64,000 nt of DNA from an uncultured Gammaproteobacteria bacterium (lineage in GTDB: Bacteria; Patescibacteriota; Microgenomatia; UBA10105; UBA927), in assembly GCA_964449585.1 (NCBI GenBank), contig CAYUZE010000001.1, positions 42,836 to 106,835 on the forward strand. The letters are read 5' to 3'. Each line of letters begins with the position of its first letter. Position 1 is the first letter of the stretch. The position numbers are program-made. Positions 42,001 through 45,000 of this stretch are shown here, one piece after another.

Positions 42001-45000
42001 GTACTGCATTATACTGGATAATGCCTGCTTATGAAACATAAACGGCTTTTTACCGGTGTACTCATTGTTCTTCCGTTTGGTCTTCCGTTTGAATGGAGTG
42101 CTGATTACGAATTCCAAACGGCACGGGAACTTGTAACCCGACACGCGACCGTCATTGCCTATCTTCCGAACGAAGGAAAAACGTTGTTTCGCTGGATCTT
42201 CTCGCCATCACCGCTTTTTGAGATACGACAAGGCGTGACCATTTACCGGCCGTTACATTTTCTTCCGCTCCATCGTTTTCGCATTATCCGAACGATAAAT
42301 CATTGGATAGCCACGAAGCTATTGCTATGTATTATTTCCCATCGCGCCAAATGGAAAGACTTGCCGAAAATATTCTGGACATTTTCCTTGCAACGAGCCG
42401 TATATCCGCAATGGTTCGGCCCTAAGTTTTATAAAATTTACGATTGTGTGGATATGTTTATGACCGGACGCACACAGGACACGGAGACCTGGCAACATGA
42501 AGAACGACGGGTGATTAATGGATCAGATATCATCTTTACCAATTCGAGGGTGCTCTTTGAACAGAAGCGGCGAACACATCCCCGTGTCTTTCTCCTCCCC
42601 GAGGGCATGTTTGTCCCCGAATTATTTCCCTTATCACGGCATATGAAAGAACCGCCGCTCATCAGGAAGCTTCCTCATCCAAGAGTTCTCTTTGTCGGGA
42701 ATATAAACACCCGGCTGGACTTTATGACAATTAGACGAGCGGCAACGGCATTACCCGACTATTCATTTATTTTTATTGGATCCATAGACCGATTATTTTC
42801 CGGTCCGGTCGAAATTTCCTTAACAAAAGAAGTTGACGCATGGCGAAGACGGATAAATGTTCACGTACTCCCCGCTGTCCCCAAAAAGGATATTGCGTCG
42901 TATATTAAGTTTTCCGACGTCGGATTTATCCCGTACGACATAAACCAGCAATTTAATAAATACTGTTTTCCAATCAAGGCACTGGAATATTTTTCCATGG
43001 GAAAGCCGGTCGTTTCCTCGGCGATGGAAACCATGCGGTCGTTTTCGCCGCTTGCGCTCACCTACGTCACCCCTGACGGAGCGGTTGCTGCGCTGAGGCG
43101 CGTAGTCTCACGGCCGTGGCCGGCAGCGCATCGGAGAAGGCAACGCCGCATAGCATTATCGAACTCGGTAGCGGAAAAACTCTCCAAGGCTGAGAATATA
43201 CTTCATACGTATTTTTTGCGGTGATTTTGATAGAATTGATACGTTGTTTATGATAGCCCCTACTTCCGCGATTATCGCCATTACCTTAAATTGCAACTCA
43301 CGTTGCATTATGTGCGATATTTGGAAGAATAAAATCCCCAATGAATTACCGGCTGAATACTATAAAAAACTTCCCGCAAGCCTCAAAGACATAAATATCA
43401 CGGGAGGAGAGCCGTTTTTGCGTCAGGATATCGTTGAGATAGTACGTAATATGAAAATCGCAGCTCCCAACGCACGTTTTATCATGAACTCTAACGGATT
43501 CATGCCCCACATGGTGAAGAAGCATCTTCCGAAGATTTTGGAAATTGATCCGAATTTTGCATTCCGAGTTTCCATTGACGGCATAGGTGCGGCGCATGAT
43601 GCGATACGGCGCATCCCCGGGGGATATGACAAGATTATGGAATCTCTTAGGATTGCAAAGGAAGTGGGCACCAAAGATTTGGGGATCGCATTCACTCTTA
43701 TTGATCAAAACGTTGATGAACTGCCAAAAGTACAAAAGCTTGCCGATGACTTAGGGGTTGAATTTTCCATGACCGTTGCGACAAATTCCGTGATCTACTT
43801 CGGATCGGGAAAAGAAAACCTTCGCCCCAAGAATCCTGAACGGCTTGAGATGCGACTTGAAGAAACCGCGAGGAAGCATCTTGCACGAATGTCGCCGAAA
43901 GAACTTATGCGGGGATGGTTTATCAAACGGCTTATATCCTTTGTACAGACGGGGAAGCGTGCGCTCGTGTGCGACGCGGGAACCGGCTTTTTTTATATGG
44001 ATTCGCTGGGTAACGTGTACACTTGCCATCTTAAGCCATGGAAAATGGGAAATATTAAGTCGGCGTCGATGGAAAAAATTCTTGCCAATCAAACCTATGC
44101 AAAGCGGGTCGCGACGTGTGACGCTTGCTGGATGGTTTGTACGGCAAAATCGATGATGCGGAGAAAAATATTCCGCGTTGCCCTCGAAACGCTTAAGGAT
44201 AAGGCAACCATACACTTTCCGATGCCTGATAAACCGGATTTTGGCGTTATTGTACCGACCAAATCCCACTGACGGCAGCACTATAGTCTTCCTCAAAAAA
44301 AGCGTGTACACTTTCTTTGTGAAAAACCACATGCTTGAAAAGGCGTTTATAACGAGTATCTCCTTGGGGGCAGTTATTATCGGTGGATCAAAACTGCTCA
44401 ACTTTATTCTCAAGCTTCTTGTATCGCAGCTCGGCGTAGAAAACTTCGGCGACTACTACCTCGCAATCTCAACTTTTATCGGGCTTACCACCGTAGCTGC
44501 GCTTGGCATACCCATGAGCACCACGCGCTTCATATCGTTTTTGAACGGCCAGCGCAATATAAAATCCATACGAAATGTTATCTCCACTGCAATGATCGTG
44601 ATAATCTCGTCTTCCCTGTTTATGAGCGGCATAGTATATGGTTATGCTGACACCATGTCCGCCCTGCTGGACATGCCAAACGCGGCAGTATATCTTCGGA
44701 TACTTTCTTTCGGCTTCATGGGTTCTTCCATGACGCTCCTGATACGTGCGGTTTTTCTTGGCTATGTGCGCATCCGCCTCACCTATGTGATCGAGGCGTT
44801 AGAAGTGACGCTGAAATTCCTATTTACCGTCGGTGGCCTACTGGTGATGCAACGGGGGGTTCTCGGGGCACTTGTAGGATACGTTGCCGGAACGCTATCG
44901 GCTTCGTGCATCAATTTTTTCATTTTGGCCAACGTATCCGATCTGCGAAAATTCACTCCGCGGCTCTCATTGGGCTTCCTGCGCTTCGCATGGCCGGTAA

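Follow-up and report, generated by a model that had tools for sequence, protein, structure and literature searches.

What does a radical S-adenosylmethionine (SAM) enzyme do between a glycosyltransferase (GT) and a polysaccharide flippase? The question is raised by a 64,000-nucleotide stretch of DNA, here called the window, from an uncultured bacterium placed by GTDB in the Patescibacteriota (NCBI GenBank assembly GCA_964449585.1, contig CAYUZE010000001.1, positions 42,836 to 106,835 of the forward strand), in which a radical SAM gene, rSAM-2, lies between a GT gene and the gene for a Wzx-type flippase. The protein that it encodes is intact and belongs to a large radical SAM family that has not been named. 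We consider it very likely to be a glycan-tailoring enzyme, a role well supported because the polysaccharide context is conserved and fusion to GTs has occurred repeatedly in the family. A more specific reading is put forward tentatively: rSAM-2 may be soluble and of the twitch type, modifying a sugar once it has been transferred to the lipid-linked repeat unit in the Wzx/Wzy-type polysaccharide pathway of a Gottesmanbacteria-like host from the candidate phyla radiation (CPR).

Sequence features of rSAM-2

The initial annotation had placed the gene at 43244–44272 between the GT and Wzx genes, and both the open reading frame (ORF) and all the motif strings it quoted are present. In the ORF listing of the window this forward-strand frame encodes 342 amino acids from a TTG codon. 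An ATG two codons further in, giving 43250..44272 (+) and 340 amino acids, is favoured because close homologs are 340 amino acids long and share the N-terminus MI(A/S)PTSAIIA. The protein holds eight cysteines in total, all within the quoted motifs CNSRCIMCDIW (residues 15–25), CDAG (241–244), TCH (258–260) and CDACWMVC (290–297).

Its place in the radical SAM superfamily is indicated by the CxxxCxxC motif, by a Pfam match to Radical_SAM (PF04055) above the cutoff (E 5e-17, 63 bits against 29.5), by the GGE motif and by a partial TIM-barrel fold. An AlphaFold2 model built from the homolog alignment (pLDDT 91.9) has a β-hairpin at residues 247–257, between C241 and C259. Cysteines 15, 19 and 22 are kept in 83–84 of 84 family members, and G52, G53, E54, P55, F56, L57 and R58 are invariant in all 84 sequences. 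In an alignment of 45 homologs with at least 41% identity, GGEPFLRxD is invariant, as are C241, C259, C293 and C297, with C290 kept in about 90%. The methionine of CxxxCxMC is the dominant residue at its position, being present in nearly all family members.

The C-terminal region had been described as SPASM, and Pfam does return that domain with a marginal pass (24.8 bits against a cutoff of 21.5). The SPASM motif is defined by seven cysteines, CX9-15GX4C ... CX2CX5CX3C ... C, with two auxiliary clusters. rSAM-2 has five C-terminal cysteines, C241-x17-C259 (in which GNVYTC corresponds to GX4C) ... C290-x2-C293-x3-C297, and the SPASM label is therefore nominal only; the pattern would fit a twitch domain, a shortened SPASM domain in which a Cys-flanked β-hairpin and cysteines further downstream hold a single auxiliary [4Fe-4S] cluster.

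The absence of a cobalamin-binding domain, which had been taken as an argument against a class B methylase, was borne out: Pfam returned no B12-binding domain (PF02310) in rSAM-2, and an N-terminal domain is ruled out because CxxxCxxC begins at residue 15, with 14 residues before it; rSAM-2 is therefore not a class B methylase. Hydrophobic-moment and hydrophobicity analysis found no transmembrane segment in rSAM-2, and its C-terminal helix is moderately amphipathic (0.3–0.47), a combination that does not separate a lipid-linked from a soluble substrate.

A conserved gene block in close relatives

The closest named homolog of rSAM-2, from Candidatus Gottesmanbacteria, is 92% identical. The GT-rSAM-Wzx triad, which the initial annotation had proposed searching for in other genomes, recurs in five further contigs at 57–92% identity, comprising three independent arrangements and two near-duplicates. 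GT, rSAM and Wzx, followed by Wzy, a DUF4330-like protein and two GT4 glycosyltransferases, are found in L001, L002/L003, L004 and L006/L007 (L numbers denote loci of relatives); L001 has a methyltransferase between GT and rSAM, and a 4-nt overlap of the rSAM and Wzx genes is seen in three of the loci.

When the window is compared with L001, identity is 92% for rSAM, 34% for the GT, 57% for Wzx, 74% for Wzy, 70% for the DUF4330-like protein, and 62% and 51% for the two GT4s. Orthologs of the upstream GT occupy the same position in L001, L002 and L004 (34–41% identity), the position being filled in L006 by a 421-amino-acid, weakly GT1-like protein. Wzy is syntenic in L001, L002, L004 and L006 (43–74%), and the second GT4 of the block is syntenic at 40–58% identity. 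The gene had been called inserted, a description that finds no support, since the arrangement itself is conserved and no other gene of the block is as well conserved as rSAM. Conservation between these two Gottesmanbacteria-like contigs, over window positions 42031–45578 and L001 positions 8083–12329, is mosaic, with a constrained rSAM and diverged GT and Wzx, a pattern suggestive of recombination near the rSAM gene or of diversifying selection for glycan specificity there.

Co-transcription of the three genes had also been assumed. All lie on the forward strand, with gaps of 25 nt (GT to rSAM-2) and 58 nt (rSAM-2 to Wzx), and this spacing is compatible with co-transcription. A scan of 41000–47500 for regulatory signals added nothing to it: 12 promoter-like sites were found against 13.0 expected from shuffles, and 7 terminator-like sites against 7.0, with no excess of either. 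Methyltransf_24 was considered as a conserved partner and rejected, because the gene upstream in the window is only 21% identical to the gene between GT and rSAM in L001.

Family distribution and genomic context

One database search returned 1,241 homologs of rSAM-2 at E≤1e-3, and an exhaustive profile search of 1.84 billion representatives returned 1,161 representative clusters (50% identity) at E≤1e-30, numbers far above what chance would give. Scanning a single genome per species for the sequence pattern located 564 relatives on genome contigs from many phyla. Relatives occur in Acidobacteriota, Chloroflexota, Patescibacteria, Gammaproteobacteria, Verrucomicrobiota, Planctomycetota, Bacteroidota, Firmicutes, Fibrobacterota and DPANN archaea.

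For a census of neighbours, ORFs were called in 88 loci and all neighbours within 6 kb were clustered, with totals of 89 including the window; calling was by a greedy longest-ORF procedure that under-calls in high-GC contigs, so that the numbers of neighbours given here are minimum values. Most prominent are two GT4 clusters, of which A is present in 47 of 89 loci, the window among them, and B, DUF1972/Cps2T-like but below the cutoff, in 35 of 89. They often flank rSAM directly on the same strand, in the order A-rSAM-B, and in some loci, such as L009 and L005, a WbaP-type phosphoglycosyl transferase (PGT) comes next. Core loci were defined by an rSAM scoring at least 135 bits against rSAM-2; of these 65 loci, a GT4 lies within 6 kb in 57, compared with 4 of 21 in a distant out-group. 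An adjacent GT4 on the same strand is present in 33 of the 65, and in 10 the rSAM is flanked by a GT4 on either side. Pfam domains of immediate neighbours include GT4, GT2, Wzy, Wzx, Wzz, methyltransferases and PGTs, and the same scans revealed no PqqD or peptide-partner pattern. In a neighbour-joining tree the window clade is nested in the GT4-linked family, its nearest non-CPR relatives (L009/L005/L010) carrying the A-rSAM-B arrangement.

Cultured members bear only the RefSeq name 'radical SAM protein'. The homolog of Segatella copri DSM 18205 (WP_050758626.1) lies in a locus of GT, rSAM, GT4 and nucleotidyltransferase, and that of Pseudobutyrivibrio xylanivorans MA3014, on pNP95, lies in an exopolysaccharide cluster.

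The link to glycan assembly is also physical. A search with an rSAM-GT4 fusion from Zixibacteria (L066) returned scores of fused proteins, and domain scans identified fusions of the types GT4-rSAM (P0193 from Coprococcus, 812 amino acids; P0221 from Lachnospiraceae; P0164, P0307 and P0311), rSAM-GT4 with DUF1972 (P0121 and P0123), GT2-rSAM (P0273, P0305 and P0361) and GT28-C-rSAM (P0254), together with rSAM-LicD (P0240), rSAM-methyltransferase (P0301) and rSAM-GHL15 (P0293). The fused rSAM domains can be aligned with rSAM-2 from end to end, at 136–162 bits and 31% identity, whereas the antibiotic-pathway enzyme BlsE reaches 47 bits. The cluster of the Coprococcus fusion reads PGT, GT4 (DUF1972), acyltransferase, GT4-rSAM, acyltransferase, GT2 ... 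pyruvyl transferase, Wzx. This repeated fusion to glycosyltransferases provides a strong functional link to glycan assembly.

Other architectures were also observed: an rSAM-rSAM fusion in Omnitrophota (L075, 7944–10139); a biotin-synthase-like rSAM+BATS module joined to a family rSAM (P0197); and a fusion of rSAM with an FNR-like reductase (P0152; L093, 7001–8785) that is abundant, being present on 95 contigs, and lies near a PIG-L protein and outside glycan clusters.

Relation to known radical SAM families

rSAM-2 and 84 of its relatives were scanned against NCBIfam, and every model scored far below its cutoff. The best scores for rSAM-2 (bits/cutoff) were TIGR04053 76/395, AhbD 70/500, PTO1314 69/306 and BlsE (TIGR04466) 47.7/400, with PapB at 59.7/340, NirJ at 62/515, AhbC at 56/650, MftC at 52.7/265, SkfB at 42.6/300 and the N_Twi_rSAM model at 49/170. 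Over the whole scan the models matched most often were PTO1314, AhbD and NirJ, all weakly. In a single-sequence search of the PDB the best match to rSAM-2 was BlsE (2e-11); with the family profile SkfB led (2.6e-20), and BtrN was matched at 4e-09. The top structural neighbours, BlsE and SkfB, are both twitch enzymes.

The sugar-acting relatives that have been characterised, BtrN, BlsE, AprD4, NeoN and HygY, act after glycoside formation. The epimerases HygY and NeoN and the dehydrogenase BtrN are, like rSAM-2, small radical SAM enzymes, and they abstract a sugar or cyclitol C–H after glycoside assembly; HygY and BtrN are moreover twitch enzymes, as is proposed for rSAM-2. According to the title of a study cited in PMC10991966, a single cysteine in HygY decides between an epimerase and a dehydrogenase outcome.

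BlsE (PDB 7VOB/7VOC) shares with rSAM-2 and nearly all of its family the methionine of CxxxCxMC, which was noted as unusual in BlsE, other radical SAM enzymes having an aromatic residue there (PMC3715490). In contrast to rSAM-2, which lies in a Wzx/Wzy polysaccharide locus, BlsE, an enzyme of the blasticidin S pathway, belongs to nucleoside-antibiotic clusters and acts on cytosylglucuronic acid (CGA). rSAM-2 is 21% identical to BlsE and scores below the equivalog cutoff, its neighbours are GT, Wzx, Wzy and GT4 genes with no CGA synthase, and it may catalyse a different reaction. The activity first reported for BlsE was that of a decarboxylase (PMC3715490). A decarboxylase reading of rSAM-2, drawn from BlsE and a TuaH-like GT, was not adopted: the TuaH match reaches 67 bits against 550, and no UDP-glucose dehydrogenase is a conserved neighbour. 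BlsE itself has reportedly since been reassigned as a 1,2-diol dehydratase. Taken together, rSAM-2 appears to resemble the twitch sugar-tailoring enzymes yet belongs to none of the curated families.

Proposed reaction and alternative readings

In the mechanism that we propose, the [4Fe-4S] cluster bound by CNSRCIMC would reductively cleave SAM, and the resulting 5′-deoxyadenosyl radical would take a hydrogen from a ring carbon of the sugar newly attached by a neighbouring GT, on the cytoplasmic polyprenyl-diphosphate-linked repeat unit; radical SAM enzymes in general cleave SAM to this radical, which abstracts a hydrogen from the substrate. The substrate radical could then be quenched by either of two routes. 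Return of a hydrogen by C297, which would not be a cluster ligand, would give a redox-neutral epimerisation that needs no electron sink, as in HygY and NeoN, whereas transfer of an electron to an auxiliary cluster at C241/C259/C290/C293 would give oxidation or dehydration, as in BtrN, BlsE and AprD4. As rSAM-2 has the cluster cysteines and C297 together, the favoured outcome would be epimerisation, giving a sugar that no nucleotide sugar supplies, an assignment from sequence in which our confidence is low. The edited unit would then be extended, flipped by Wzx and polymerised by Wzy. We infer the substrate (lipid- rather than nucleotide-linked), the carbon attacked and the outcome of the reaction.

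A census of cysteines in 439 family domains, a query-biased sample, shows how the residues behind the two routes are distributed. All four cluster cysteines together with C297, the rSAM-2 type, occur in about 235 of the 439 domains. The four cysteines with Gly297 occur in about 144 (98 of 141 of these being long fusion proteins), and about 29 domains have lost all four yet keep C297. Not one of the 439 lacks both the cluster cysteines and C297. Replacement of the four cysteines, mostly by serine, with the C297 equivalent kept extends over whole subclades (L014, L015, L021, L023–L027, L029, L030, L036 and DPANN L070–L087). This pattern fits two alternative quenching routes, and the division between C297 and auxiliary cluster matches the cysteine dichotomy of HygY. 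It is doubtful, though conceivable, that the mechanism extends to the family as a whole, such that its members edit sugars directly on polyprenyl-diphosphate-linked units between two glycosyl-transfer steps, those with C297 epimerising and those with Gly297 and the cluster, mostly GT fusions and including proteins of human-gut Firmicutes, oxidising or dehydrating.

Several points weigh against editing of a lipid-linked sugar by rSAM-2. The putative role of C297 as hydrogen donor derives from conservation patterns, in a census biased towards the query. The similarity to BlsE is remote. Without a membrane segment or a strongly amphipathic helix, rSAM-2 is equally compatible with lipid-linked and nucleotide-sugar substrates. 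The scans at chance level provided no signal that GT, rSAM and Wzx are co-transcribed, and the reductase-fused subfamily outside glycan clusters indicates that the family may not be functionally uniform. Of the initial proposal that rSAM-2 acts on the lipid-linked unit before flipping, the connection to glycan assembly stands on the triad and the fusions; the lipid-linked substrate is kept as the tentative part.

A serious rival, although we regard it as less likely than the lipid-linked reading, is that rSAM-2 acts on a cytosolic nucleotide sugar, as DesII does on a TDP-sugar, and so makes a rare donor for the adjacent or fused GT. Across the loci, however, no nucleotidyltransferase or nucleoside-diphosphate (NDP)-sugar pathway gene is a conserved partner, and the fusion partners GT4, GT2, GT28-C, LicD and methyltransferase use different donors. 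The characterised twitch sugar enzymes BtrN, BlsE and HygY, moreover, act on free glycosides or cyclitols and are not known to act on NDP-sugars.

We hold it very improbable that the target of rSAM-2 is lipid instead of sugar, whether the polyprenyl carrier or the anchor of a glycolipid, by analogy with the lipid-modifying radical SAM enzymes GDGT-MAS and HpnH. The matches behind that analogy are weaker than those to BlsE and SkfB. Genes for Wzx, Wzy, Wzz and PGTs predominate in the surroundings and indicate assembly of polymer repeat units, with no conserved lipid-synthesis neighbour.

That rSAM-2 is a peptide or protein maturase, or an AhbD/NirJ-type tetrapyrrole enzyme, located by chance in a glycan island is scarcely credible and largely refuted: the family's structural and profile matches include SkfB, CteB, anSME and PqqE, the AhbD and NirJ models reach 62–70 bits, several homologs are named 'Fe-coproporphyrin III synthase' by JGI and one homolog locus, L008, has PqqD/ScmC genes nearby, but these models are far below their cutoffs (AhbD 70 against 500, SkfB 42 against 300), domain scans found no heme or tetrapyrrole genes in the 25–59 kb part of the window, and members from different phyla show the same glycan setting and fusions to GTs. 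SkfB, CteB, SuiB, PqqE and anSME, unlike rSAM-2, have an N-terminal domain of the RiPP recognition element (RRE)/PqqD type or a cognate peptide or protein encoded nearby (RiPP, ribosomally synthesized and post-translationally modified peptide); rSAM-2 has no such domain and no peptide partner, its flanking gaps leave no room for a precursor ORF, and it holds five of the seven SPASM cysteines. Homology to a well-characterised non-glycan family with a conserved cognate partner, which would have spoken against a glycan role, was thus not found, as no curated family reaches its cutoff.

Implications for surface-polysaccharide biosynthesis

To our knowledge, radical SAM enzymes acting on sugars have been described in antibiotic pathways (BtrN, BlsE, AprD4, NeoN, HygY and DesII) and not in the assembly of Wzx/Wzy-type surface polysaccharides. 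Our literature searches, whose coverage was incomplete so that absence is no proof, found no paper on a radical SAM enzyme in Wzx/Wzy-type glycan clusters. What is new here is a known class of chemistry in a new biological setting, with new GT-fused architectures.

Members of the family are found in CPR bacteria, in Bacteroidota and Firmicutes of the gut, and in many environmental phyla. If its members edit sugars after transfer, glycan structures predicted from gene clusters would be wrong wherever the family occurs, anaerobes would be able to make rare sugars without recourse to nucleotide-sugar metabolism, and glycoengineering would have natural two-step catalysts in the GT-rSAM fusions. 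If the editing takes place on lipid-linked units, it would constitute an unrecognised stage of surface-polysaccharide biosynthesis, yielding residues that have no nucleotide-sugar form. The presence of members in culturable strains (Segatella copri DSM 18205, Pseudobutyrivibrio xylanivorans MA3014 and Coprococcus) makes the role directly testable.

The surrounding locus

Features of rSAM-2 and of its surroundings are collected in Table 1. The Wzx start was set by alignment to the L001 ortholog, which is 57% identical.

Table 1. Features of rSAM-2 and neighbouring genes, in window coordinates.
Feature	Coordinates	Strand	Remarks
rSAM-2, radical SAM/twitch-domain enzyme	43250..44272	+	340 aa; alternative start TTG 43244
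CNSRCIMC, three Cys for the SAM-binding [4Fe-4S] cluster	43292..43315	+	Met at the usually aromatic position
GGEPFLR, SAM-binding 'GGE' motif	43403..43423	+	invariant in relatives
Twitch-like C-terminal Fe-S domain	43970..44140	+	C241, C259, C290, C293 putative ligands of a single auxiliary cluster; extra C297
GT-B fold glycosyltransferase	42031..43224	+	Glycos_transf_1 3e-07; Glyco_trans_1_4 3.4e-07; TuaH 67 bits vs 550
Wzx-type flippase (MOP/Polysacc_synt, MATE-type)	44331..45578	+	ATG start; Polysacc_synt_3 8e-11; Polysacc_synt 7e-10; MatE
Wzy-type polymerase (O-antigen ligase family)	45579..47123	-	convergent with Wzx; Wzy_C 1.4e-17
DUF4330-like protein	47127..47942	-	271 aa; DUF4330 2.2e-10
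GT4 glycosyltransferase, neighbour cluster A	47961..49124	-	Glycos_transf_1 1e-39
Second GT4 glycosyltransferase of the conserved block	49138..50445	-	Glycos_transf_1 1e-27; Glyco_transf_4 5e-17
ABC-2 permease + ATPase	25557-28197		glycan island of the window
APS-kinase-domain protein	26445-27407		glycan island of the window; extra N-terminal region
Sulfotransferase	33403-34185		glycan island of the window

Besides rSAM-2 the window has only one other ORF with CxxxCxxC, rSAM-1 (34218..35237, reverse strand; motif CNFSCPYC), flanked by the sulfotransferase and by an RmlD-like reductase (35368–36309). The two had been described as different paralogs. They are indeed distinct: the nearest curated family of rSAM-1 is STM4011 (67 bits against a cutoff of 200) and that of rSAM-2 is BlsE/TIGR04053-like. 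Paralogy was overstated, however. BLASTP gave only short local matches (E 1e-4), and with different nearest families close paralogy was rejected, the two being related at the superfamily level only. The second radical SAM gene differs among relatives: it is tungsten-maturase-like in L001, where no ortholog of rSAM-1 is present, and in L002 it is a separate gene for a B12-rSAM protein (3184–4680).

The DUF4330-like protein adjoins the Wzy gene in every relative compared (L001, L002, L004 and L006; 49–70% identity) and could be a polymerase partner or a chain-length factor. The longest-ORF models at 49138–50445 (-) and 50203–51387 (+) overlap head-to-head by 243 nt. The start of the second GT4 probably lies downstream of TTG 50445, to judge from orthologs of 373–385 amino acids, and both starts are probably further in, for example at 50416 for the forward gene, the orthologs being shorter; the divergent promoter region there is accordingly uncertain. 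A multi-pass membrane protein of 580 amino acids (51557–53299, -) had no match in Pfam or NCBIfam; it has a 47% identical counterpart in L001 and may be a GT-C-like transferase.

The same island holds a second glycan pathway, of the ABC-transporter type, with sulfation genes (25557–34185). ATP-sulfurylase/adenosine 5′-phosphosulfate (APS) kinase and sulfotransferases are also present in L002 and L004, which suggests that the surface glycans of these CPR bacteria are sulfated. A QueC-like ATP-pyrophosphatase (37302–38213, +) adjoins a GT8-like gene inside the island, and in the L008 locus a QueC-PqqD-like protein (402–1688), a PqqD protein and a ScmC-like protein are encoded near rSAM. At the island edge, a NodU/CmcH-type carbamoyltransferase (57208–58914, -) and a DegT aminotransferase (55491–56600, -) suggest carbamoylated or amino sugars, and carbamoyltransferases adjoin a family rSAM in two other loci.

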